A stretch of 64,000 nt of DNA from Escherichia coli. GTDB taxonomy: Bacteria; Pseudomonadota; Gammaproteobacteria; Enterobacterales; Enterobacteriaceae. A model generated the notes under the pieces. That model had not been told where the DNA came from. It saw only the letters and a list, made by a program, of their open reading frames with translations, and made no database searches. Where the stretch lies: assembly GCF_017348835.2 (NCBI RefSeq), contig NZ_CP071375.1. The stretch is one strand, 5' to 3'. This document shows positions 4,902 through 55,065 of the stretch, one piece after another. Position numbers and translations under genes: made by a program. Position 1 is the stretch's first letter, and every line of letters begins with the position of its first letter.

Positions 4902-6263
4902 TTAGCGACCAGGAAATCCCGGCGGCATCATCCCCTTCATGCTTCTCATCATCTTCGCCATTCCGCCTTTCTTCATTTTCTTCATCATGCGCTGCATGTC
5001 GTCGAACTGCTTCAGAAGGCGGTTAACGTCCTGCACCTGCATACCGCAACCGGCAGCAATACGGCGTTTACGCGAACCTTTGATGATTTCTGGCTTAGCG
5101 CGCTCTTTCATCGTCATTGAGTTGATGATGGCTTCCATACGCACCAGCACTTTATCGTCCATCTGCGACTTGACGTTATCCGGGATCTGCCCCATGCCCG
5201 GCAGTTTGCCCATCAAGCTGGCCATGCCGCCCATATTTTTCATCTGGCGCAGCTGCTCAAGAAAGTCGTTGAGATCGAAGCCGTCACCTTTTTTCAGCTT
5301 GCTGGCTAATTTCTCTGCCTGCGCGCGGTCAACTTTGCTTTCGATATCTTCGATCAGCGACAGTACGTCGCCCATGCCGAGAATACGCGACGCGATGCGG
5401 TCCGGATGGAACGGCTCCAGCGCCTCAGTTTTCTCGCCAACACCGAGGAACTTGATCGGTTTGCCAGTGATGTGACGAATAGAGAGCGCCGCACCGCCGC
5501 GGGCATCGCCGTCCACTTTGGTCAACACTACGCCGGTAAGCGGTAACGCTTCATTGAATGCTTTTGCCGTATTGGCCGCATCCTGACCGGTCATGGCGTC
5601 AACCACAAACAGGGTTTCAACCGGGTTAATCGACGCATGGACTTGTTTGATCTCGTCCATCATCGCTTCGTCAACGTGCAGACGACCAGCGGTATCCACC
5701 AGCAGCACGTCGTAGAATTTCAGTTTGGCTTCTTTCAGCGCCGCGTTAACGATATCTACCGGCTTCTGACCAACATCAGAAGGGAAGAAATCAACGCCCA
5801 CCTGCTCTGCCAGCGTCTCAAGCTGTTTGATTGCCGCCGGGCGATAGACGTCGGCAGAAACCACCAACACTTTCTTCTTGTGCTTCTCGCGCAGGAACTT
5901 ACCGAGTTTACCAACGCTGGTTGTTTTACCGGCACCTTGCAGGCCCGCCATCAGCACGACCGCTGGCGGTTGCGCAGCCAGGTTCAGGGTCTGGTTCTCT
6001 TCGCCCATCGCCGCAACCAGTTCGTTACGGACGATTTTGACGAACTCCTGCCCCGGCGTCAGGCTCTTATTAACTTCATGACCAACCGCTTTCTCTTTTA
6101 CGCGATTGATAAACTCACGCACTACCGGCAGAGCAACGTCCGCCTCCAGCAGCGCCATGCGCACTTCGCGCAGCGTATCTTTTACGTTGTCTTCAGTGAG
6201 GCGTCCACGGCCACTGATATTGCGCAGCGTGCGCGACAAACGATCGGTTAAATTATCAAACAT
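4902..6263 (-). CDS. ffh: Signal recognition particle protein Ffh
   Basis: 453 aa; GTPase motifs (GLQGAGKTT, DTAGR), Met-rich C-terminal M-domain. Confidence 0.97.
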   Translation of the reverse strand: MFDNLTDRLSRTLRNISGRGRLTEDNVKDTLREVRMALLEADVALPVVREFINRVKEKAVGHEVNKSLTPGQEFVKIVRNELVAAMGEENQTLNLAAQPPAVVLMAGLQGAGKTTSVGKLGKFLREKHKKKVLVVSADVYRPAAIKQLETLAEQVGVDFFPSDVGQKPVDIVNAALKEAKLKFYDVLLVDTAGRLHVDEAMMDEIKQVHASINPVETLFVVDAMTGQDAANTAKAFNEALPLTGVVLTKVDGDARGGAALSIRHITGKPIKFLGVGEKTEALEPFHPDRIASRILGMGDVLSLIEDIESKVDRAQAEKLASKLKKGDGFDLNDFLEQLRQMKNMGGMASLMGKLPGMGQIPDNVKSQMDDKVLVRMEAIINSMTMKERAKPEIIKGSRKRRIAAGCGMQVQDVNRLLKQFDDMQRMMKKMKKGGMAKMMRSMKGMMPPGFPGR

Positions 6264-9298: not shown

Positions 9299-10177
9299 AT
9301 GAATAATCATTTCAAGTGTATTGGCATTGTGGGACACCCACGGCACCCTACTGCACTGACAACACATGAAATGCTCTACCGCTGGCTCTGCACAAAAGGT
9401 TACGAGGTCATCGTTGAGCAACAAATCGCTCACGAATTGCAACTGAAGAATGTGAAAACTGGCACGCTCGCGGAGATTGGGCAACTGGCTGATCTCGCGG
9501 TAGTCGTTGGTGGCGACGGTAATATGCTGGGCGCGGCGCGCACGCTCGCCCGCTACGATATTAAAGTTATTGGAATCAACCGTGGCAACCTGGGTTTCCT
9601 GACTGACCTGGATCCCGATAACGCCCAGCAACAGTTAGCCGATGTGCTGGAAGGCCACTACATCAGCGAAAAACGTTTTTTGCTGGAAGCGCAAGTCTGC
9701 CAGCAAGATTGCCAGAAACGCATCAGCACGGCGATTAACGAAGTGGTACTTCACCCTGGCAAAGTGGCGCATATGATTGAGTTCGAAGTGTATATCGACG
9801 AGATATTTGCGTTTTCTCAGCGTTCCGATGGCCTGATTATTTCGACACCTACAGGCTCCACTGCCTATTCTCTCTCGGCAGGCGGTCCAATTCTGACGCC
9901 TTCTCTGGATGCAATTACCCTCGTGCCCATGTTCCCGCATACGTTGTCAGCACGACCGCTGGTGATAAACAGCAGCAGCACGATCCGTCTGCGTTTTTCG
10001 CATCGCCGTAATGACCTGGAAATCAGTTGCGACAGCCAGATAGCCCTGCCAATTCAGGAAGGTGAAGATGTCTTGATTCGTCGCTGTGATTACCATCTGA
10101 ATCTGATTCACCCGAAAGACTATAGCTATTTCAACACATTAAGCACAAAGCTCGGCTGGTCAAAAAAATTATTCTAA
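9299..10177 (+). CDS. nadK: NAD kinase
   Basis: 292 aa, [11 protein letters not shown] and NRGNLGFL motifs. Confidence 0.95.
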
Positions 10178-10194
10178 TTTTGCGCCAGCCTCTT

Positions 10195-10236
10195 TACTGT
10201 ATATAAAACCAGTTTATACTGTACACAATAACAGTA
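10195..10236 (+). promoter_or_regulatory. Tandem LexA (SOS) boxes in the recN promoter
   Basis: TACTGTATATAAAACCAGTT and TACTGTACACAATAACAGTA (CTGT-N8-ACAG consensus) 30-70 bp upstream of recN ATG. Confidence 0.7.
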
Positions 10237-10262
10237 ATGGTTTTTCATACAGGAAAACGACT

Positions 10263-13363: not shown

Positions 13364-13846
13364 ATGACGAAGAAAAAAGCACATAAACCTGGTTCAGCGA
13401 CCATCGCGCTTAACAAGCGCGCCCGTCACGAATACTTTATCGAAGAAGAGTTCGAAGCGGGACTTGCCCTGCAAGGCTGGGAAGTTAAATCCCTGCGCGC
13501 AGGAAAAGCCAATATCAGCGACAGCTACGTCCTTCTGCGTGACGGAGAGGCATTTCTGTTTGGCGCTAACATCACGCCAATGGCCGTGGCCTCCACGCAT
13601 GTGGTGTGCGATCCTACCCGTACCCGCAAGTTACTTCTCAACCAGCGCGAACTGGACTCATTGTACGGTCGCGTCAATCGAGAAGGCTATACCGTAGTGG
13701 CGCTCTCCCTGTACTGGAAAAATGCCTGGTGCAAAGTGAAAATCGGCGTCGCCAAAGGTAAGAAACAGCACGATAAACGTTCAGATATCAAAGAGCGCGA
13801 ATGGCAGGTGGATAAAGCGCGTATCATGAAAAACGCCCACCGTTAA
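13364..13846 (+). CDS. smpB: SsrA-binding protein SmpB
   Basis: 160 aa, [48 protein letters not shown]... Confidence 0.97.
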
Positions 13847-14060: not shown

Positions 14061-14423
14061 GGGGCTGATTCTGGATTCGACGGGATTTGCGAAACCCAAG
14101 GTGCATGCCGAGGGGCGGTTGGCCTCGTAAAAAGCCGCAAAAAATAGTCGCAAACGACGAAAACTACGCTTTAGCAGCTTAATAACCTGCTTAGAGCCCT
14201 CTCTCCCTAGCCTCCGCTCTTAGGACGGGGATCAAGAGAGGTCAAACCCAAAAGAGATCGCGTGGAAGCCCTGCCTGGGGTTGAAGCGTTAAAACTTAAT
14301 CAGGCTAGTTTGTTAGTGGCGTGTCCGTCCGCAGCTGGCAAGCGAATGTAAAGACTGACTAAGCATGTAGTACCGAGGACGTAGGAATTTCGGACGCGGG
14401 TTCAACTCCCGCCAGCTCCACCA
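14061..14423 (+). ncRNA. ssrA: tmRNA (SsrA), 363 nt, ending in CCA
   Basis: Starts GGGGCTGATTCTGGATTCGACGGG, contains tag-reading-frame region and tRNA-like 3' end GGTTCAACTCCCGCCAGCTCCACCA. Confidence 0.97.
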
Positions 14424-14550
14424 ATCATGATTGGACGGTGTAAGGACAACACCAACAAAAACAGGAAGTTAGCAGTCTCAGCAGGACACCGACCAGACGG
14501 TGAGGAGACAAAAAAGGATACGCAAAGGAGCCGCGGCTCCTGGCGACATG

Positions 14551-14575
14551 AAAGCCCACAGATGTGGGCTTTTTC
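14551..14575 (+). terminator. Intrinsic terminator downstream of ssrA, just past the ypjA stop
   Basis: GCCCAC-AGAT-GTGGGC hairpin followed by TTTTT. Confidence 0.6.
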
Positions 14576-14583
14576 GTTGATGG

Positions 14584-17500
14584 TCAGAACGACCAGTTCA
14601 CACCAGCCACCGCGTTCCACGGGGATTCCACATCGGCACCGTTGCTATACCCCACCCCGAGATGCCCGCTTAACGTACTGCTGAATGAGGCTTTAATACC
14701 TGCCTGGTATATTCCACGTCTGCCCGACAAATCATTGACGAAATTACCGTCATTATTCACCTTCACCCGGTTATCATCGACAAATTCTTTGCGCACAGCC
14801 GCCTTCAGCCACGGCTCAACTTCCATACCGTTCCCCAGACGCATGTTGTAACTCAGCGTTGCACCCAGTTCACGATATATACTGCGGGTATCGACTGATT
14901 TCGATTCCATGCCATTGGATAAATGATATTCGGGGTTATCAGCGGTGAACCCCGTTAACGATGCATACGGCGTCAGGTTCCAGTTACCATCAGTAAATCG
15001 CATCCCGGTTTCAATGTGACCGCCCAGCCCGTTGCTGTGGTAACTGCCATTGGCGGCTCCACCGCTGCTCATTTTACCGGCTACGTTACTTTCAAAACGG
15101 TTCAGCTTCACGACACCGTCCAGATAGAAACCACTTTCATGTTCCCAACTGGCATAGCCGCCCAGAGAATAACTGCCCACACTGCCATGTCCTCCGCGAT
15201 CAAAACCGATATGTGAATGGGAATAACCCATAAAAGCGCCCAGCGTCGCAATCCCCTCAGGAATATCATTACGGCTGTCGATCCCCACTGTCATTCCGGT
15301 CAGCGTCTGCTCAAACCCGGCCCCCGCATCGGTGGTGACATTATTACGGGTGTTATACGTCGCCCCCCAGACATTATTGTTGTGTGAACTCGCTTTCATT
15401 ATGTTCAACCGCTCGCGAATACTGTTTAGCTCAGCATCAAATACCAACGGTAATGTTGCTGCCATATTGAGTACGGCTGCGGTAGAAGGCGTGATGCGTT
15501 TCTCCGGAACGGGTGTCGGCGTTGGCTCGGGAGTCGGGTCTGGTTTCGGATCCGGTTTTGGGTCTGGTTTTGGATCCGGCTTCGGATTTGGGTTGGGATT
15601 TGGGTTGGGATCCGGGTTGGGTTTGACATCATTGGTCAGGTTCCAGTTGCTGTTGCCATCGCTTTTCAGGACATACTCATAGGTCCCAAGATCAACGAAA
15701 CCGCCAGTATTGCCCAGCGAAAACGAAGCATCCCCTCCCCCTGTTTTCACCAGCGTCATCGCGTCGTCAGACTGAGGACTGACGCCGGTATCCTGAACAA
15801 AGATTTTAAAATTACCAGTGGCGTTGTTGCTGACGACCAGTTGATCACCGCGGGAGCCAGCAACGTTGGTATGCAGGTAGAAATTACCGCTACCGGAAAG
15901 TTCATTGGTTGTCAGCGTATTGTAGATACCGTTAGTTGTGGCAGGCGCTGCTGTTTGTGCTGATAAATAAACATCACCGTCGTTGAGTAGCAAACTGTTT
16001 ACTCTATATTCGCAGTTGCTGGTACCTGCACAGGAATTATTGCTGTTAAGCCAGACACTGCCCCGGCTGGCAGCCATCAGGTCGGCAAGCGTTGTATCGA
16101 CGCCATTTCCCAGAGTTAATGCCGCGCTATCGGTAATCCGGACCGCCCCTACGAGTTTAACTGGCGTAACATTATCCCGTGGCGTCATTAACGACAGGCT
16201 TCCTGTCGCGCCACTGACCGATGCATCCGCCAGCGTACCTGCGTAGACGATTGCCGTACCGCCAGCGACCTGGAGATCTTCTGCCCGGGCCAGAGCCTGA
16301 AACTCATCTTTTGACCGCCCAAGGGTATATTGCCCGCCAGAGTTAACCTTTGTAGCGGAGTCCTGACCCAGGTTTTGCATTGCACCACCCTTGCCAACCG
16401 TGGAGTAGCGAGCTTCGGTACCTGCTAATACCAATAAATTACCACCATTTTCCAGCAACATATTGGTCGCTAAATTTCCGGCAATGGAAAAGGTGCCGTA
16501 CTGGTGAGTACCGCTGATTTCAATACCGTTAGCTGTGCTCGTCTGGAGAGCGGCACCGCTGTTCTGGACGATATCTGTCGCTTTGCCATTATCATTGACT
16601 GTCAGCGTACCGCCTTCATTTATCGTTGTTTTTATTGCCTCACCGTTAGCCGAAACTGTTTGTATTCCGCCGTCGTTAATCGTTGTCTCATTCGCCACAC
16701 CCTCGACGATTTGTTCGCCGCCGGTGAGCGTCGTGCCTGTCGCAGTGGCTTTTATTTTGACGATCTCCCGTCCGCCCGTATTGACCTGTGTTTTGGCGGA
16801 AGTGGTGTCTGACTCCACGGTTAACACGCCGCCATTTGCCAGCAGGATATTGTTCGCCGCATCCTGCTCGATGCTGAACACGACGCCATCTGCGCGTGTC
16901 CCTGTGACACGCGTCGCCTTGGTGGTTGCAACCAACGCGCCCTGGCTACTCTGCTGTATCCCCGTTGCGCTGCCTTTCTCCCGCACATCGAGTGTGCCGC
17001 CGTCATTAAGCACCGAGTTTTCAGCCAGACCGCCCTCATTAACTACCTGTGAACCGCCATTAATAATGGAACCTTCCGCTGTCCCGTTTGCCATAATTTG
17101 TTGTAGGCCAGAGACGATATCGGTGTTGATTGCCTTACCATAACTCTGAACGGTTTGCGTGCCACCATTGATGTGTGTTTTATCTGTTGACCCACCATCA
17201 ACAATTTGTTCACCACTTTCGAAATTTGCCTCAGTGGCTAAACCATATACCGTTTGCTTGCCACCTTTGATATTTGCTTTATCAGAAGTGGCACTGGCAT
17301 ATATTGTTTGGGTGCCCGCACTATTAAGTACAGTGCCAACATCTTTTCCATAAACATCCATTTTGCCGTTGACATTAATAATCGTATCAACTGCCCGGGA
17401 ACCAGTGACGACTGTTAATGAGCCAGCGTTTTCCAGCACTACATTTTTAGCTTCTGAATTCCTGATGTAGAAAGCATCACCATAACTGTTGGTTCCTTCG

Positions 17501-19170
17501 ATAAGTGTTCCGGAAGTCGTGGAAGCAATTAATGCGCCGCCGGATTGTTGCTCAACATGCTTAGCCTCACCACCGTCCTGAACCTCCAGAACGCCGCCAT
17601 GATTAAGTCTGGTGGTATCTGTTTTGGCCTCCTTCTGGACAATCAGCTTACCGCCAGCATCAATGGTAGTATTTTTCGCCGAGGTTTTAGCCACTACCGT
17701 CAATTCGCCGGTATTTTCCAGCACAACATAATTAGCCTCCCCTCCGGTAATAGTGAAGTGAGAGAGCTTGTTGTATCCTTCGATATCAGTCCCTGCGCCC
17801 GTGTTGGCAACTAAAGCACTGCCCGTCTCCTGGTTAACCCCATGTGCAATACCGCCGGTATAGACAATCAGCGAGCCTCCGGCGCTAATATTGCTGCCAG
17901 TTGCCGTACCATCTTTCTCAACAACCTGGCGGCTCCCAGAGGAGATATTCGTCGTGTCAGCTTTCCCGCCGCTCTTGATATTTTGCGTTCCACTGTTGAT
18001 ATTGGTGCCCGTGGCAATACCATGATTATTAATATTCTGTGTGCCACCATTAATTATGGTATTTGTCGCGTTTCCGGCAACATCCATAACCCCGCCATTA
18101 TCTATTCGGGTAGCATCAGCTTTAGCATTCGTTAAAACTGACATTGTTCCTTTATCTTTAATAATCGTCTTGTTTGCCGAACCATATGCGTTTATGTCTA
18201 AATGACCACCGTGTTCCAGCAACACATTGTCTGCAACGTGATTGTGGATGGAGAATGCCCCTTCACTATTCGTACCGCTCACCGTCGTACCGTTAGTGTT
18301 TGTTTTTAAAATTGCACCATCGTGCTGGGTAACATTTGTTGCCGTACCACCACTAACATCAAGCACGCCACCGGAATAAACTTCAATAACATCCGAGGTG
18401 CTGGTGTTATCAACAATTTGCGTGCCACCAGCATAGATCTGCGTATTTTTTGCCGTTGACTTACTATTCAGAGACTGAGTTCCGCCTTCAATCGTGTTGT
18501 TCAGCGCACGGCTCTCATATACTCTTTGCTCACCGCCATTTTTAATGGTGGTTGTTTCTACTGTGCTCTGTTCAACATACTGTCGACCACCATTTATGGT
18601 TGTGTTCGTTGCCAGACTTCCTTGCGTGATGTCCTGAGAGCCAGACTTATTTATCGTTGTACTGTCGACATGCCCCTGAGTTGTTACTCGTTGGCTGCCA
18701 CCATCAATGATTGTTCCATTCGCAGTCCCCCCACTTATGTGTGAATTACCCCCCTTAATTGTCGTTCCATTGCTGATACCACCTGTATAAACGTCCTGAT
18801 TGCCACTCTCGATTATTGTACCTGTGGAAATACCCCCGTCATGAATTGTCTGTCTGCCCCCGTTAATGGTTGTATTATTAGACTGCCCCACATAATTGTT
18901 ATGCCTTGCTACATCTTGATATCCACCAGATTCAATAAGACTTCCATTAGATATCCCACCATAAACATTCTGCTGGCCATGGTTGATAATATGAGTGTTA
19001 TTTGTTGTACCTCGTTCATCTACTCTTTGGGTGCCATCTACAGTCTCATCGTTTACCACACCAATAACATCAGGAGTGAAGGCCGCCATCCCGGGCGGGG
19101 CATATATCAAGGCAGATATCAATAAGGAAAGTACTGAGCGGCGACAATAATGGGGACTGGTCCTGTTCAT
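14584..19170 (-). CDS. ypjA: Large autotransporter adhesin-like protein (YpjA family): signal peptide, long repetitive passenger, Pro-rich linker, C-terminal beta-barrel
   Basis: ORF 14584-19299; start placed at MNRTSPHYCRRSVLSLLISALIYAPPGMAAF (signal peptide) giving about 1528 aa; passenger built of about 19-aa Gly/Thr/Asn-rich repeats; barrel ends ...NWSF. Confidence 0.85.
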   Translation of the reverse strand: MNRTSPHYCRRSVLSLLISALIYAPPGMAAFTPDVIGVVNDETVDGTQRVDERGTTNNTHIINHGQQNVYGGISNGSLIESGGYQDVARHNNYVGQSNNTTINGGRQTIHDGGISTGTIIESGNQDVYTGGISNGTTIKGGNSHISGGTANGTIIDGGSQRVTTQGHVDSTTINKSGSQDITQGSLATNTTINGGRQYVEQSTVETTTIKNGGEQRVYESRALNNTIEGGTQSLNSKSTAKNTQIYAGGTQIVDNTSTSDVIEVYSGGVLDVSGGTATNVTQHDGAILKTNTNGTTVSGTNSEGAFSIHNHVADNVLLEHGGHLDINAYGSANKTIIKDKGTMSVLTNAKADATRIDNGGVMDVAGNATNTIINGGTQNINNHGIATGTNINSGTQNIKSGGKADTTNISSGSRQVVEKDGTATGSNISAGGSLIVYTGGIAHGVNQETGSALVANTGAGTDIEGYNKLSHFTITGGEANYVVLENTGELTVVAKTSAKNTTIDAGGKLIVQKEAKTDTTRLNHGGVLEVQDGGEAKHVEQQSGGALIASTTSGTLIEGTNSYGDAFYIRNSEAKNVVLENAGSLTVVTGSRAVDTIINVNGKMDVYGKDVGTVLNSAGTQTIYASATSDKANIKGGKQTVYGLATEANFESGEQIVDGGSTDKTHINGGTQTVQSYGKAINTDIVSGLQQIMANGTAEGSIINGGSQVVNEGGLAENSVLNDGGTLDVREKGSATGIQQSSQGALVATTKATRVTGTRADGVVFSIEQDAANNILLANGGVLTVESDTTSAKTQVNTGGREIVKIKATATGTTLTGGEQIVEGVANETTINDGGIQTVSANGEAIKTTINEGGTLTVNDNGKATDIVQNSGAALQTSTANGIEISGTHQYGTFSIAGNLATNMLLENGGNLLVLAGTEARYSTVGKGGAMQNLGQDSATKVNSGGQYTLGRSKDEFQALARAEDLQVAGGTAIVYAGTLADASVSGATGSLSLMTPRDNVTPVKLVGAVRITDSAALTLGNGVDTTLADLMAASRGSVWLNSNNSCAGTSNCEYRVNSLLLNDGDVYLSAQTAAPATTNGIYNTLTTNELSGSGNFYLHTNVAGSRGDQLVVSNNATGNFKIFVQDTGVSPQSDDAMTLVKTGGGDASFSLGNTGGFVDLGTYEYVLKSDGNSNWNLTNDVKPNPDPNPNPNPNPKPDPKPDPKPDPKPDPTPEPTPTPVPEKRITPSTAAVLNMAATLPLVFDAELNSIRERLNIMKASSHNNNVWGATYNTRNNVTTDAGAGFEQTLTGMTVGIDSRNDIPEGIATLGAFMGYSHSHIGFDRGGHGSVGSYSLGGYASWEHESGFYLDGVVKLNRFESNVAGKMSSGGAANGSYHSNGLGGHIETGMRFTDGNWNLTPYASLTGFTADNPEYHLSNGMESKSVDTRSIYRELGATLSYNMRLGNGMEVEPWLKAAVRKEFVDDNRVKVNNDGNFVNDLSGRRGIYQAGIKASFSSTLSGHLGVGYSNGADVESPWNAVAGVNWSF
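15527..15631 (-). repeat. In-frame tandem hexanucleotide repeat tract inside ypjA encoding a (Pro-Asn/Asp/Lys)n linker
   Basis: DNA shows repeating ggatccggttttgggtctggtttt... units; translation PNPDPNPNPNPKPDPKPDPKPDPKPDPTPEPTPTP. Confidence 0.75.
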
Positions 19171-19552
19171 AAATTTCATCCTCTGAAAAGTGAATACTGA
19201 GTAGCGTTTAAGCAACCTTAGCTCTGCTGCAACATCAGCCCACAGGCACCAGACCAGGGGATTCATCCTGAAGAGACAGCGCAAGTGTATTGTGTTCACC
19301 GCTCATCAAAGACATCATGATGAAATGATGATATTCCGCATAAGAATGAGTCATTTTTTAAACGCAGTGCGCTGAAGTGTGGTTGGATAAAAAAGTCAAT
19401 CTATTCAGGAAACACGGGCGTATTCTTTTCTTTCGACATTCAGGCAGTCGGCAAAATAAAATGATTTACATAATCGTTTCTGATGAATATCTTCTGCTCA
19501 CATAAAAATCACACAATAACTTTGATATCGCAGATTGTTTTACTTCTACAGC

Positions 19553-19745
19553 ATTCGTCCCCCCATTGTTGGGGAAATATAGATTGGGCCAGAGCTCGAA
19601 AGTTAATACCACGTTTGCACAACTCCTCCAACAGCACGACAAGATGCCACATACTGCGCACCAGTCGGTTCAGTTTACAGACTAGCAGTGCGTACCCTGC
19701 CGATAATGTCCTGAGCAGTTTTTTCAGTCCGGACCTCCTGCCACG
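19553..19745 (-). pseudogene. pinH: Internal fragment of a Pin/Hin/Gin-family serine DNA invertase (remnant, no start, no catalytic N-terminus, no HTH)
   Basis: Minus-strand translation RRSGLKKLLRTLSAGYALLVCKLNRLVRSMWHLVVLLEELCKRGINFRALAQSI aligns with the invertase core ...[45 protein letters not shown]; flanked by stop codons. Confidence 0.6.
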
Positions 19746-20104
19746 GTTTTACGTTGAAGAGGTAACCCTGAGCACGCAGTTCTTCAGTCAGGCGTGGTGC
19801 ACCGTAACGCTGTTATTGCTGGGTAAGATCAAAAAACTTTCAGGCAGCTAAGGAAAGTTGAACCAGACATTAGATGAAATATTTCAACCAATTACAGCAC
19901 TAATTCAACACCGCCAGATCGCCAAATAAATCAAGGGGTTACGTGAAAGTGCAGCCCCTTTTTCTTTGGTAGTGACAGCAAAATGGATGTAGTGTGAAGA
20001 ATAATCCCGTTTAATCAATCAATAATACATATTGTTTCAATCTACGTTATTATCTCTTTGTAAAAATTGCCATTTATTCATCATTGAAAACTGCTTTTAG
20101 AACT

Positions 20105-21559
20105 TTATACAATAGAACTATTCACAACAGGACTATTCTCAACAGGATCATCCTCAGAGGAACTATCATCAAAGTCATCATCCATAAATAAAATATCATC
20201 GAATGGTGCCACGCCCGTGATTAGTTTTATTTTATTATTACGATCAGACAAGACTCCATTTAAACCGTTTTCGCTGACGGATTTTAATAATTTCTCATAA
20301 CTCTTATTGTCATCAGGCACATTAAAAATACACGGTGCATCAACATCAAACAATGAAGTTCTCCAATTCACATTTTTAATATCATAGTTACGGAAGTTCT
20401 GTCCAGAAAAGAAGCATCCCTTAAAATCCAACCCACCTAAATTATATAAACCACCCTCTCCTTTTTGTAGAGTAATATTAATTCTGGCTATCTCCCGGAC
20501 AAAACTTCCTTTTTTATATTTGAATACCGTTTCAAGATTTTCCCCAGACAGCTTGACTTCTGGGAATAATTTGAAATTAAACCCTACATCATTATTATTC
20601 AAAGTAGATGAACGGAAGATGGAAAAAGCTTGCAGCGCTGAATTATAGCTTTCGATTTTATCTTGAGGCTGCGCTCTTGGTAAAAATATATAGCAGCACT
20701 CATAAAAATTGAATAAACGTTCTGATGAATTTCCATTTTTATCAAATAATATCCCCCGGAACTCCTTCACAAAGGCATCCGTTATTTTTTGAATATCTAT
20801 GGTGTGTTCCTTTGACTCTGACAAAGATGGAGCCTGTTGAAGTGCATTGCTCATCTGGTTAAGGAACATCTGCATTTCTTTCAATTTATCTCCATAGTGG
20901 CCTTTAACTTGCTGAGAGTTTTTAGTTACAGGTGAAACCTTATCTATTTGGTTGTCATATAAATTACGTGGTTCCATAGAGACATTTGGTTGCGTTTCTA
21001 AAATAACACTACGCGTACTACCTGGCTTTAATGAATCAACATGAAACTCACTTTTTCTTATATTGCCGAATAGGGTCTGTTCATCTCTCTTAGCGGATTG
21101 AAAAAAATGATCAACATTATTTTTATTCGATGACAGGTCAGTTTCAGAAACCGCATTTTCTTTGTTCTCCAGCTTTAGTTTAATGAGAAGATCTTCCCAG
21201 ACCTGCTTGCTTAAACATACTACGTCAGGCTCACCATCAGTAACTAACTCTTCATTATTATCAAAGTATACGTTGAATACTTTTAAGTTATTTTCATCAA
21301 CATCATATTTAATACGTTTTAATTGCTCTCCAGATCCCATAATGACAAAGGCGTTGCCTTCATGATATATACATTCAGACATCATTTTTTGTAAAGTTTC
21401 AAGAGCACCGCGATACGTCGCTGAGGCAGCTTCCTTACAAATTAATTTTATAATACTATGAGCTAGTAGCTCCATGGGGTTGGAAGAATTGTTTCCATTA
21501 CAATTCCTGCTAGCAAAAAATGCGCTAGTGTTAAGTTCGTTGCTTTTACTAACTAACAT
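20105..21559 (-). CDS. Hypothetical 484-aa protein of unknown function (probably the YpjC family), low-GC gene with C-terminal pentapeptide-like repeats and acidic tail
   Basis: Long ORF in very AT-rich DNA; residues about 395-430 read LDFKG-CFFSG-QNFRN-YDIKN-VNWRT-SLFDV (x-D/N-hydrophobic-x-x periodicity); C-terminus DDDFDDSSSEDDPVENS; no signal peptide or TM evident. Confidence 0.6.
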   Translation of the reverse strand: MLVSKSNELNTSAFFASRNCNGNNSSNPMELLAHSIIKLICKEAASATYRGALETLQKMMSECIYHEGNAFVIMGSGEQLKRIKYDVDENNLKVFNVYFDNNEELVTDGEPDVVCLSKQVWEDLLIKLKLENKENAVSETDLSSNKNNVDHFFQSAKRDEQTLFGNIRKSEFHVDSLKPGSTRSVILETQPNVSMEPRNLYDNQIDKVSPVTKNSQQVKGHYGDKLKEMQMFLNQMSNALQQAPSLSESKEHTIDIQKITDAFVKEFRGILFDKNGNSSERLFNFYECCYIFLPRAQPQDKIESYNSALQAFSIFRSSTLNNNDVGFNFKLFPEVKLSGENLETVFKYKKGSFVREIARINITLQKGEGGLYNLGGLDFKGCFFSGQNFRNYDIKNVNWRTSLFDVDAPCIFNVPDDNKSYEKLLKSVSENGLNGVLSDRNNKIKLITGVAPFDDILFMDDDFDDSSSEDDPVENSPVVNSSIV

Positions 21560-22073
21560 TGTCTATTCCTCAATTAATGTCTACATGGCTATTTTTAATG
21601 TTATTACTGTTTGTCACTATAAAAATCGCTCATTTGAGACAATTGCTGACATTAACTGTTTCACATGCTACGCATGGAACTTTTAATTAAATTAGCACAG
21701 GAATGTTAAATTTAATAAACAAAAGGTTATTTCGCTGTATGATAAAAACCACCCGTTATAATTTATTAGTGAAATTCGTTTTTCGAGTGTTAGAAATTTA
21801 TATCTAAATAGCGTTGATTAATGAGAAATGCCAGACTCCTGTAACGCTCATAAGACTCATCTGCCTGCGACGGGTGTTCTGGTCAGTAGTAGATGTTTAA
21901 GGCGTGCCAGAGACATTTCATACTTACTCTACGGCATTGTTCTACATACATTGGTTGTGGTACTCACTCATCATCAGTGAGCGAACAGAGAATAGTTCAG
22001 TGATTTGAGTAATTAACCTGATTAAATGAAGGGGTATAATAAATGATAATACTCTGGCTTTATCGTTAATTAC

Positions 22074-22300
22074 TTAATTCCACATGTAAGCAATTTGCCC
22101 GCTTGGCATAGCGAGCATTTTTTCCAGGTACTTTTGAATGAGTACTGATGGATAAATACATTGCAGTGGCGTGCCACGTACCAAAACACCAGCCCTCATT
22201 CGAAACCACCCACCGCACTTCTTCCTTGAAATGGCGTTAGTCATGAAATATAGACCGCCATCGAGTACCCCTTGTACCCTTAACTCTTCCTGATACATGA
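22074..22300 (-). pseudogene. Possible degraded N-terminal stub of a P4-family tyrosine integrase immediately 3' of ileY
   Basis: Minus-strand translation ...VLDGGLYFMTNAISRKKCGGWFRMRAG... resembles the integrase N-terminal motif ...LADGGGLYL...GSKYWRMKYR...; short, stops at 22074; weak similarity. Confidence 0.35.
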
Positions 22301-22308
22301 ATGATGAT

Positions 22309-22384
22309 TTGGTGGCCCTTGCTGGACTTGAACCAGCGACCAGGCGATTATGAGTCGCCTGCTCTAACCACTGAGCTAAAGGGC
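22309..22384 (-). tRNA. ileY: tRNA-Ile (anticodon CAU, lysidine-modified, AUA-reading)
   Basis: Minus strand reads GGCCCTTTAGCTCAGTGG...CGACTCATAATCG...GGTTCAAGTCCAGCAAGGGCCACCA; cloverleaf with CAT anticodon. Confidence 0.92.
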
Positions 22385-22944
22385 CTTGAGTGTGCAATAA
22401 CAATACTTATAAACCACGCAATAAACATGATGATCATATGATGTAAATAACAGATTTTTATGCGTTCTCATTCATCCTTGCTCGTCATTACACGCGACAT
22501 AAAACCCGACACCGCCTCTATTCGCAAAGTCGATACTCGCAGTCAACAAGCAAATGTTAATAATTAACACTATCTATAGTTATCATCGATTCAATGATAC
22601 TTTGTAATGATTTTGTATCTAATAATATAACTTTATTACATTAGCTGAAGAGTTTTCGCATCATTATGATATCTGTTACTTTTCACGCCATAAAAATAAA
22701 CTTCATATAGCAATATATTCTTTCATAGATCTTATTCTGCTAATCATTAGTTTCGTATGAGCGATTTTTGACAGTTGCCTCTCCAGACCACATCGATAAT
22801 TAAAAAAACAGATTTAAGCATTATCCTTTTCCATATAAATATTGGATAAAAGTAGGACATCTGTTTGCAATTACTTTCACAACAATTAAACATTTTTATG
22901 TTTCCATATACACCATATTACTCTACCATTAGAGGAACTTTATT

Positions 22945-44677: not shown

Positions 44678-44755
<78 letters not shown>

Positions 44756-44862
44756 GCCTACAAACCACACCGCACATTTCAACAATCTATCTTTCATCCC
44801 ATATTCATCAACATCCGCTATTATTGATTTCCAGCTTAATCATCACCTGATGAACAAAAATA

Positions 44863-51355: not shown

Positions 51356-51433
51356 GAAAGACGCGCATTTGTTATCATCATCCCTGAATTCAGAGATGAA
51401 ATTTTGGCCACTCACGAGTGGCCTTTTTCTTTT
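51356..51433 (+). ncRNA. micA: MicA (SraD) small regulatory RNA
   Basis: GAAAGACGCGCATTTGTTATCATCATCCCTGAATTCAGAGATGAAATTTTGGCCACTCACGAGTGGCCTTTTTCTTTT in the luxS-gshA intergenic region; terminator hairpin plus U-tract. Confidence 0.82.
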
Positions 51434-54337: not shown

Positions 54338-54414
54338 TGGTGCATCCGGGAGGATTCGAACCTCCGACCGCTCGGTTCGTAGCCGAGTACTCTATCCAGC
54401 TGAGCTACGGATGC
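54338..54414 (-). tRNA. argQ: tRNA-Arg (anticodon ACG)
   Basis: Reverse complement GCATCCGTAGCTCAGCTGGATAGAGTACTCGGCTACGAACCGAGCGGTCGGAGGTTCGAATCCTCCCGGATGCACCA. Confidence 0.93.
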
Positions 54415-54475
54415 ATCGGGAAAATTTATTTTACTGCTGATATTGATATCGCTACTAAAGCCATATCAAGTAAGA

Positions 54476-54612
54476 GATGGTGCACCAGGGAGGATTACTC
54501 GCCTTGCGGCTCGCCCTTCGGGCCGTTGCTGGCGCAACGTTATCCTCCCTGGTGCCTGCGGTTAATTCCGCTACCTCTTCGATATCTTCATTGCTGAAGA
54601 TTTCGGAGAATA
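54476..54612 (-). repeat. About 135-bp tRNA-linked repeat (copy 2) between argZ and argQ
   Basis: TGGTGCACCAGGGAGGAT ... ATCCTCCCTGGTGC perfect 13-bp inverted repeat enclosing about 45 nt; shares the 3' 60 bp with copy 1. Confidence 0.6.
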
Positions 54613-54689
54613 TGGTGCATCCGGGAGGATTCGAACCTCCGACCGCTCGGTTCGTAGCCGAGTACTCTATCCAGCTGAGCTACGGATGC
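54613..54689 (-). tRNA. argZ: tRNA-Arg (anticodon ACG)
   Basis: Sequence identical to argQ copy. Confidence 0.93.
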
Positions 54690-54751
54690 ATCGGGAAATT
54701 AATTTTACTGCTGATATTGATACCGCTACTAAAGCCATATCAAGTAAGAGA

Positions 54752-54828
54752 TGGTGCATCCGGGAGGATTCGAACCTCCGACCGCTCGGTTCGTAGCCGA
54801 GTACTCTATCCAGCTGAGCTACGGATGC
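54752..54828 (-). tRNA. argY: tRNA-Arg (anticodon ACG)
   Basis: Sequence identical to argQ copy. Confidence 0.93.
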
Positions 54829-54892
54829 ATCGGGAAACTTACTTTACTGCATATTTTTTGATACCGCTACTAAAGCCGTATCAAGTAAGAGA

Positions 54893-54969
54893 TGGTGCAT
54901 CCGGGAGGATTCGAACCTCCGACCGCTCGGTTCGTAGCCGAGTACTCTATCCAGCTGAGCTACGGATGC
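54893..54969 (-). tRNA. argV: tRNA-Arg (anticodon ACG)
   Basis: Sequence identical to argQ copy. Confidence 0.93.
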
Positions 54970-54972
54970 AAA

Positions 54973-55065
54973 TGGCGGTGAGGCGGGGATTCGAACCCCG
55001 GATGCAGCTTTTGACCGCATACTCCCTTAGCAGGGGAGCGCCTTCAGCCTCTCGGCCACCTCACC
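54973..55065 (-). tRNA. serV: tRNA-Ser (anticodon GCU), long variable arm
   Basis: Reverse complement GGTGAGGTGGCCGAGAGGCTGAAGGCGCTCCCCTGCTAAGGGAGTATGCGGTCAAAAGCTGCATCCGGGGTTCGAATCCCCGCCTCACCGCCA. Confidence 0.93.

Follow-up and report, generated by a model that had tools for sequence, protein, structure and literature searches.

The tmRNA gene, ssrA, is reportedly treated as an integration hotspot in Williams's 'Traffic at the tmRNA gene' of 2003. More generally, tRNA and tmRNA genes are hotspots for the integration of genomic islands (Islander, PMC4383910; Klebsiella t(m)DNA survey, bioRxiv 10.1101/2020.11.02.365908), and at ssrA islands generally insert into the 3' end, supply a sequence by which the gene is restored, and are delimited at the far end by the fragment that was displaced. 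For example, Escherichia coli K-12 carries the element CP4-57 at ssrA (Kirby et al., 1994; Wang et al., 2009, 2010; Onodera et al., 2022; as cited in PMC3105296 and PMC10107115). CP4-57 excises in K-12 (PMC3105296; PMC10107115), and the product of this event is ssrA delta-T357, which leaves the tmRNA inactive (PMC10107115). The same gene end is targeted by Citrobacter phage phiNP, for which a 25-bp attB/attP core was mapped experimentally (PMC6456863).

The mode of integration at ssrA is established knowledge. The attB at the end of the gene is used by the tyrosine integrases of P4-like islands such as CP4-57, of P2-like and phiNP/LLS-type phages and of lambdoid phages, each recombining its attP with the 3' segment of ssrA. 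The element brings a replacement 3' end for the gene, and some phages bring a replacement trailer and terminator as well, while the original 3' fragment is displaced to attR, beside the native trailer and ypjA. The locus described here bears the signs of none of these steps and represents the unoccupied allele of this hotspot.

The ssrA 3' end and its attachment site

The DNA analyzed is a 64-kb stretch of an E. coli genome, referred to below as the window, and a near-identical genome, PE164, supplied annotation. The window contains a full-length ssrA at 14061..14423 on the + strand, which ARAGORN called as a tmRNA with the tag peptide ANDENYALAA and which Rfam matched at the same coordinates over positions 1-374 of 374 of RF00023 (292.8 bits, E 2.5e-119). 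Upstream lies its conserved neighbor smpB (13364..13846, +), an ORF annotated under that name in PE164. The interval of interest, 14380..14600, takes in the terminal 44 nt of ssrA, the entire intergenic spacer and the stop codon of the convergent gene ypjA. A base check found a T at window position 14417, so T357 of ssrA is kept and the G3-U357 wobble pair is intact.

The last 25 nt of ssrA, GGTTCAACTCCCGCCAGCTCCACCA (14399..14423, +), are the phiNP core with no base changed (PMC6456863), and 14401..14424 is the segment that alignment of the K-12 attL and attR sequences shows to be imperfectly duplicated at the CP4-57 attR. Straddling the end of the gene is a 14-bp perfect palindrome, CCAATCATGATTGG (14421..14434), which was detected by self-matching, is common to all aligned copies of the downstream trailer, phage ones included, and may be a core-type recombinase site.

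In an alignment with a K-12-type genome, the junction in the window reads ssrA...CCAGCTCCACCAA joined to TCATGATTGGACGG...ypjA. It equals K-12 attL as far as the last base of ssrA, connected to the sequence found after the degenerate repeat TTCAGACTCCGCCAGC-CCACCAA at attR, with nothing inserted. As the original prediction stated, K-12 carries CP4-57 here, with 22,030 bp from intA to ypjF between the two junctions and ypjA coming after attR. The two strains thus share the gene, its 3'-terminal segment and the downstream flank of trailer plus ypjA, whereas in K-12 the 22 kb of intA to ypjF occupy the site and the window has no insertion there and keeps T357. The site in the window is identical to the reconstructed attB.

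The interval is therefore very probably empty, as the original prediction held: an intact E. coli ssrA 3' end, with its native trailer and terminator and a convergent ypjA, into which no mobile element is integrated, and whose last ~25 nt are an unoccupied attB. From its sequence this attB is predicted to be competent for recombination, and its emptiness presumably means that it was never occupied, as opposed to cleanly vacated.

Searches for an integrase or a second ssrA end

A duplicated ssrA 3' segment, which the original prediction held to be lacking, was sought in several ways. Queries with the terminal 26 nt and 18 nt of ssrA, allowing up to 3 mismatches, matched ssrA alone in the 64-kb window; the degenerate K-12 version of attR gave 0 matches there; and blastn-short with the last 60 nt of ssrA, and with the spacer, found no further match in the window. 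For a genome-wide check PE164 was used as a proxy, and megablast with a 220-nt query placed the ssrA 3' end and spacer at one place only in its chromosome, a search that would miss any short degenerate attR lacking an adjoining trailer. A longer query of 1201 bp found one matching place per complete E. coli genome beyond the ssrA junction; since the 220-nt query has a single place in PE164, this extra place does not represent another ssrA 3' end or trailer.

Genes of a mobile element were likewise lacking. No integrase gene occurs from dgcN to srlB, where the ORFs of the window and the PE164 annotation describe core genes, and the 160 bp between ssrA and ypjA are a non-coding trailer in which ORF analysis, the PE164 annotation and Pfam revealed neither an integrase nor other element genes. 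A displaced ssrA 3' fragment, a second trailer copy and an integrase were thus found neither in the 64-kb window nor, within the scope of these searches, in PE164. The sole recombinase-like sequence in the window by Pfam and annotation is a fragment of pinH (19578..19745, -), a 56-codon pseudogene of a Pin/Hin-type serine recombinase, or invertase (Pfam Resolvase, E 3.2e-09), which is annotated as partial in both PE164 and K-12 and in the latter lies outside CP4-57. The statement that phage genes are lacking consequently holds for intact ones, but has to be qualified for this fragment, which lies 5 kb downstream of ssrA and is 81% identical to a recombinase fragment of the ssrA-integrated prophage of Esc12; beyond it, neither an attR-like copy nor an integrase or any other intact phage gene was found outside the interval.

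The accessory block downstream of ssrA

The gene that converges on ssrA, ypjA (14584..19170, -), begins a region that is itself variable among E. coli strains. Its stop codon reads TCA, the reverse complement of TGA, at 14584..14586, which agrees with the convergent stop originally reported, and its product, annotated ypjA/EhaD in PE164, is an autotransporter adhesin with AIDA, Pertactin and Autotransporter domains in Pfam. Genome comparison delimits an accessory block of 10.76 kb (14575..25333), without an integrase, that comprises ypjA, a small ATPase-like ORF, the pinH fragment, ypjC (DUF5507/5508), the tRNA gene ileY and a ygaQ-like gene of the amylase family. The ileY gene (22310..22385, -), recognized by ARAGORN, Rfam and the PE164 annotation, has a CAT anticodon and is annotated tRNA-Ile; its 42-nt, 79% match to the ssrA 3' end was considered as a possible attR and set aside as tRNA-likeness.

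It could be that this block is the remnant of an old island that inserted itself at ssrA, or beside it, and has since lost its integrase and attR, in which case the site would not be empty in the strict sense. The block does show the presence/absence polymorphism expected of an island, as E. coli 536 and the two sister species E. whittamii and Escherichia sp. E1V33 lack it, as do 1103 of 5426 E. coli genomes, and in genomes without it (536, E. whittamii, E1V33) only about 330-430 bp separate the terminator from the glaH promoter region. In addition, a tRNA gene lies within the block, and its serine-invertase fragment resembles the one in the Esc12 prophage at ssrA. G+C content is 0.33-0.39 over 19500..25500, the distal half of the block, but ypjA itself is at 0.44-0.55. 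On the other hand, the left edge of the block falls after the terminator, at 14575, and not within ssrA; neither edge has direct repeats or an ssrA-like fragment, and the ssrA end and the trailer do not recur near 25,300 or elsewhere in the window; and no tyrosine integrase adjoins the target or occurs anywhere in the block, whose one recombinase sequence is the 56-codon serine-recombinase fragment. The block also replaces about 333 bp, so it is not a clean insertion, and the same block lies beyond attR in K-12, so that active elements treat it as chromosome. An origin of the block as a degraded ssrA island consequently seems rather unlikely, although it fares better than the other alternatives considered below.

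Occupancy of ssrA in other genomes

In the survey of 5426 complete E. coli genomes, ssrA was occupied in most, and the contiguous ssrA-ypjA junction of the window was found in 1384, or at least a quarter. Several classes of occupant were seen among other E. coli genomes. Because the empty state is this common, it carries little information by itself. Occupied genomes break from the 1201-bp query at positions that correspond to window 14401-14424 (query 502/511/519 and 524/525). Sequenced phages carry either the 35 terminal nt of ssrA or its 3' end together with the trailer; the copies in phiNP, LLS and the P2-like phages Fels-2, RE2010 and SEN8 align to 14390..14574 (with the trailer included in LLS and phiNP), and Escherichia phage LLS (PQ299149) bears an annotated tmRNA pseudogene/attP. 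The window itself holds no phage.

A related arrangement is that of 'attB-in-PP', in which copies of attB lie inside prophages with flanking chromosomal sequence (Nakamura et al., 2021, PMC8112680). Outside the window, the present analysis encountered a similar copy of the ssrA type in a 43.7-kb circular phage record from strain CT01, where a degenerate ssrA 3' end and trailer lie between dinI and a restriction gene, whereas the loci in the earlier work were ompW-prophage sites and the ykgJ/ecpE region. The CT01 record also has a second, weaker copy.

The prevalence of occupied sites raises the possibility that the empty state is a secondary loss, with CP4-57 or a similar element having occupied the site at one time and then left it by excision. 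Such a history would fit the known excision of CP4-57 (PMC3105296; PMC10107115), and elements with perfect repeats excise precisely without a trace. However, the known product in K-12 lacks T357 because attR there reads CCAGC-CCACCA in the alignment, and the corresponding scar would read CCAGCCCACCA, whereas the window reads CCAGCTCCACCA with a T at 14417. As T357 is present, the ssrA gene of the window is not the inactive delta-T357 scar left by CP4-57 excision in K-12. Moreover, hybrid or foreign bases were not seen at the junction, and the trailer belongs to the type found on E. coli chromosomes and not to the phage-borne one, so prior occupation followed by excision is improbable.

The ssrA trailer and terminator

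The 160-bp spacer between ssrA and ypjA (14424..14583, +) has features of its own, which emerged from folding, alignment, covariation and matches across genera. It contains three hairpins, H1 (14437..14453), H2 (14475..14509) and H3 (14521..14545), one of which bears an invariant ACCAGAC loop, followed by a terminator hairpin (14550..14573), all on the + strand. The fold has a z-score of -3.47, and in the RNAalifold alignment of trailer copies 96% of the cells are paired, versus 39-48% in slid controls. Compensatory changes occur in 10 of 33 pairs, and all four hairpins are supported in this way across Enterobacteriaceae. Between genera the trailer is 88-91% identical, with the adjoining smpB coding sequence at 81-82%, and it is homologous to the sequences of other genera and of phages up to 14574-14578. 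These sequences were gathered by an exact 17-nt junction match and share common descent, possibly with horizontal transfer among them; an exact-pattern scan of genome contigs with CCACCAATCATGATTGG returned 109 matches, mostly chance ones in unrelated phyla, of which 15 Enterobacterales loci were useful. No Rfam family was found for the trailer in a search of 14300..14700 with E up to 10, which returned tmRNA and, on the minus strand, weak chance hits to isrB and rsmX (E about 0.1). Two ORFs that overlie the spacer, 14427..14684 (+, 85 aa) and 14402..14620 (-, 72 aa), were treated as spurious, the former having no Pfam match and overlapping ypjA in antisense.

Sequence, fold and covariation agree on the terminator. 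The hairpin at about 14550..14575 is the predicted Rho-independent terminator of ssrA, with a 9-10 bp G+C-rich stem, an AGAT loop and a T run; it reads AAAGCCCAC-AGAT-GTGGGCTTT and then TTCG (14551..14575) and begins 127 nt past the end of ssrA, close to the ~130 bp first estimated. This hairpin is the strongest helix of the RNA fold, and in relatives compensatory changes preserve it, as its stem (14550..14573, with TTTTT) has the form CCCAC/GTGGG in some copies and CCCGC/GCGGG in others. A simple terminator scan did not list the 14551..14575 hairpin, probably because part of the T run was counted inside the stem, and this negative was discounted since fold and covariation show the hairpin clearly. 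The window has the CCCAC/GTGGG type, as does the K-12 copy flanking attR (96.0% identical), whereas phage-borne copies at attL have the CCCGC/GCGGG type and are 92-93% identical to the window.

Although whole-trailer copies that are 85-93% identical exist in phages and prophages, it is very improbable that the 160 bp are an attL-type remnant of a lambdoid or LLS-like phage with the ssrA end and trailer in its attP, as the trailer follows ssrA in the element-free genomes of 536, E. whittamii and E1V33, directly adjoins a full-length ssrA in eight further species of Enterobacteriaceae that were sampled, is followed by a DUF4236 gene and not an integrase in the two species typed, lies on the chromosomal side of attR in K-12, and in the window groups with the chromosomal E. 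coli type. Those two species are Klebsiella indica and Pseudenterobacter, in which 401-aa ORFs after the trailer had been suspected to be integrases; they encode DUF4236 proteins instead, and therefore the trailers of these species are not attL remnants of integrase islands.

The spacer is thus regarded as native to the chromosome, and these observations lead to a tentative proposal, which seems possible if somewhat short of probable. The ~150 nt after ssrA may constitute a conserved and structured 3' trailer of the primary tmRNA transcript (three hairpins plus the terminator), with an RNA structure that is selected across Enterobacteriaceae, and its copying by phages would imply a role in cis. 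Phages that target ssrA (the LLS and phiNP types, and the lambdoid prophages of Esc12 and SFE8) appear to have copied the trailer into attP, so that integration would regenerate the gene end together with a native-like trailer.

Implications for ssrA islands and tmRNA processing

An empty ssrA attB is an ordinary and already well-known state that adds nothing new on the phenomenon of integration hotspots, and the view of ssrA as such a hotspot is unchanged. The value of the site is confined to that of a reference allele, which provides the exact attB and native flank needed to delimit ssrA islands elsewhere. The proposed use of this locus for reconstructing island gain and loss stands in that respect, but is limited by the little information that the empty state carries alone and by the accessory nature of the ypjA-ygaQ flank. 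This polymorphism abuts the ssrA terminator and needs to be accounted for when the 'empty' state is used in this way; the ssrA flank of the window is not the barest one, and 'empty' is a relative term. For the strain itself, the intact T357 indicates that it keeps a tmRNA 3' end that is predicted to be functional.

The observations on the ypjA-ygaQ block and on the trailer have more potential than the empty site. If the proposal for the trailer is correct, it would have a cis role in the processing, stability or expression of pre-tmRNA, one that would have been missed because the model strain K-12 has a CP4-57-derived trailer instead. That the native trailer is conserved, structured and mimicked by phages suggests that what K-12 has taught about the 3' processing of pre-tmRNA was learned on a trailer of prophage origin.

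Structure of the ssrA locus

The tmRNA gene ssrA lies at 14061..14423 on the plus strand, where ARAGORN predicts one gene with the E. coli tag ANDENYALAA and RF00023 of Rfam matches end to end (292.8 bits). Upstream are smpB (13364..13846), ratA, yfjF and bamE; downstream, the minus-strand ypjA/EhaD autotransporter gene (1528 codons; AIDA, Pertactin and Autotransporter domains) has its stop at 14584..14586 (TCA on the plus strand). The 160-bp non-coding spacer (14424..14583) has a predicted fold of three hairpins and a terminator (z = -3.47). This terminator, AAAGCCCAC-AGAT-GTGGGCTTT followed by TT (14551..14574), lies ~130 bp past ssrA and is followed by the convergent ypjA stop, both as the original prediction described.

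Position 320 of ssrA (window 14380) is C in the window and in Escherichia sp. E1V33, and T in K-12, Esc12, SFE8 and most other sampled genera. A perfect 14-bp palindrome, CCAATCATGATTGG (14421..14434), overlaps both the CCA terminus of ssrA and the first bases of the spacer, and is present in all collected chromosomal and phage copies, which were selected with a pattern that itself contained it.

The near-identical genome PE164 (NZ_CP114128.1) differs from the window by 2 mismatches in 24 kb, up to an indel in glaH; the alignment loses register at ~26044, within this gene, whose 325-codon frame (25533..26510) is open in the window and annotated as frameshifted in PE164. Elsewhere, Rfam matches above the gathering score identify naRNA4 (CssrE; 44681..44758, 76.4 bits) and MicA (51356..51427, 83.9 bits), and a minus-strand tRNA cluster beside csrA and alaS (54338..55065) contains tRNA-Ser(GCT) and four identical, unequally spaced copies of tRNA-Arg(ACG) (199, 62 and 64 bp).

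An unoccupied integration site

In the K-12-type reference locus (strain KMS2005; breakpoints identical in MC4100), the cryptic prophage CP4-57 separates ssrA from ypjA, in the order ssrA, intA, yfjH, alpA ... yfjZ, ypjF, ypjA. Its left junction, attL, reads ...CCGCCAGCTCCACCAA / AATTCTCCATCGG... and its right junction, attR, reads ...TTCAGACTCCGCCAGC-CCACCAA / TCATGATTGGACGG.... The window reads ...CCGCCAGCTCCACCAA / TCATGATTGGACGG..., so the left side of attL is joined to the right side of attR, and 22,030 bp of CP4-57 are absent relative to the K-12-type locus.

No second ssrA 3' end was found in the window with 26-nt and 18-nt patterns (up to 3 mismatches), with the degenerate K-12 attR version, or by blastn-short with the last 60 nt of ssrA plus spacer. 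In addition, a 220-nt query covering the ssrA end and spacer matched one place only in the PE164 chromosome, used as a proxy for a genome-wide search, and no integrase is present from glaH to srlB, a remainder of the window that is core chromosome. Thus, these searches found no attR-like duplicate with phage genes in the window, nor one with an adjoining trailer in PE164; the predicted empty site is confirmed as an observation, and its interpretation as unoccupied is supported.

The ssrA gene is a well-documented integration hotspot (PMC4383910; bioRxiv 10.1101/2020.11.02.365908), and the contiguous ssrA-ypjA arrangement occurs in 1384 of 5426 complete E. coli genomes. Since this attB is well known and is empty in at least a quarter of E. 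coli genomes, the feature is an already known unoccupied allele of low interest. In occupied genomes, the left piece either ends at 14423/14424, the end of ssrA, or runs through a phage-borne copy of the spacer to 14574-14578, and the right piece begins at 14401, 14410 or 14418. Occupants among the sampled genomes include CP4-57 (K-12-type), lambdoid prophages that border ssrA with their tail-fibre or cargo end (Esc12 and SFE8), a prophage with effector genes (2013C-4187), and an element with two tyrosine recombinases adjoining ypjA (ERL05-1306). The attR side of the last (NZ_CP032803.1, 241..2761) carries, ~2 kb from ypjA, the two adjacent recombinase genes and a DNA-binding protein gene, an occupant class unlike CP4-57 and unlike lambdoid prophages.

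Judged from sequence alone, it is conceivable that another element was once present and then excised with perfect precision. Excision of CP4-57 in K-12 yields ssrA minus T357 and an inactive tmRNA (PMC3105296; PMC10107115), because attR is without that base. In the window, ssrA position 357 (14417) is a T, which keeps the G3-U357 pair intact. The window's trailer, as we call the non-coding stretch after ssrA, belongs to the chromosomal type of E. coli, with 96.0% identity to the K-12 attR flank and a terminator stem (CCCAC/GTGGG) common to both; phage-borne attL trailer copies show 92-93% identity and the stem CCCGC/GCGGG. With T357 present and a trailer of chromosomal type, this site is not a CP4-57-type scar.

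Phage copies and conservation of the trailer

The last 35 nt of ssrA are found at 100% identity in P2-like phages of Salmonella, Klebsiella, Cronobacter and Escherichia. In Escherichia phage LLS, an annotated 'tmRNA pseudogene / attP' lies downstream of xis and int, and a 90% copy of the trailer comes after it. The 25-bp attB/attP core of phiNP, mapped experimentally (PMC6456863), is identical to window 14399..14423. Between dinI and a restriction-modification module, the 43.7-kb circular, phage-like record CT01 'plasmid unnamed3' (NZ_CP081794.1), which has a dusA-type integrase, contains a degenerate ssrA 3' end with the complete trailer and terminator; this copy (5982..6158) and a weaker one further along (10145..10241) may be relics of att sites or phage-internal copies of attB.

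An exact junction 17-mer search, with one genome per species, yielded 15 Enterobacterales loci, and the same trailer follows ssrA in Lelliottia, Enterobacter, Klebsiella, Citrobacter, Pseudenterobacter, Trabulsiella and Tatumella. Homology extends to 14574-14578 where the terminator is kept and ends earlier (~14539-14542) in Tatumella, Trabulsiella and Mangrovibacter. In Lelliottia, Enterobacter, Klebsiella and Citrobacter the trailer is 88-91% identical to the window's, above the 81-82% of smpB coding sequence at loci reaching that gene (Enterobacter, Klebsiella, Pseudenterobacter). K-12 differs in that its own ssrA trailer is derived from CP4-57.

An alignment of 19 chromosomal, attR-side, attL-side and phage copies gave a consensus of four helices, with compensatory changes in 10 of 33 pairs and an invariant ACCAGAC loop (trailer 14424..14574). 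Paired cells amounted to 96.0%, versus 38.8-48.3% with partners slid, and the observed covariation was reached in none of 500 shuffles; no Rfam family covers the trailer. A conserved RNA structure is a lead and not a result, because selection with the junction pattern biases the sample and its sequences are not independent.

Accessory DNA beyond the terminator

E. whittamii and Escherichia sp. E1V33 match the window across ssrA and the trailer as far as 14574; after no more than about 350-430 bp, the match picks up again at 25334/25387, shortly before glaH. This short form is shared by E. coli 536 (smpB, ssrA, 682 bp, glaH) and by 1103 of 5426 E. coli genomes; in block-less genomes (E. whittamii, E1V33, 536-type) the gap from terminator to glaH flank is about 330-430 bp. 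The 10.76-kb ypjA block (14575..25333), present or absent among genomes, is therefore accessory. It encodes ypjA, a 39-codon ATPase-like ORF, a Resolvase-domain invertase fragment (pinH, 19578..19745), ypjC (DUF5507/5508), tRNA ileY and an amylase-family gene (ygaQ).

The distal half of the block has a G+C of 0.33-0.39, and the invertase fragment is 81% identical to that of the Esc12 ssrA prophage. However, the block's left edge follows the ssrA terminator, it contains no tyrosine integrase, no repeats flank its edges, and it stands in place of ~333 bp and so is not a clean insertion; on these sequence features it would not be filed as a tmRNA-gene island. The block may be an old, degraded accretion; alternatively, the short form may have arisen by deletion. 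In K-12 the block lies on the far side of attR, which means that active elements treat it as part of the chromosome.

Given this accessory block, 'empty' is a relative term here. Beyond the textbook picture of this attB, the locus offers only two things, a conserved trailer that phages mimic and a ypjA block that is polymorphic.
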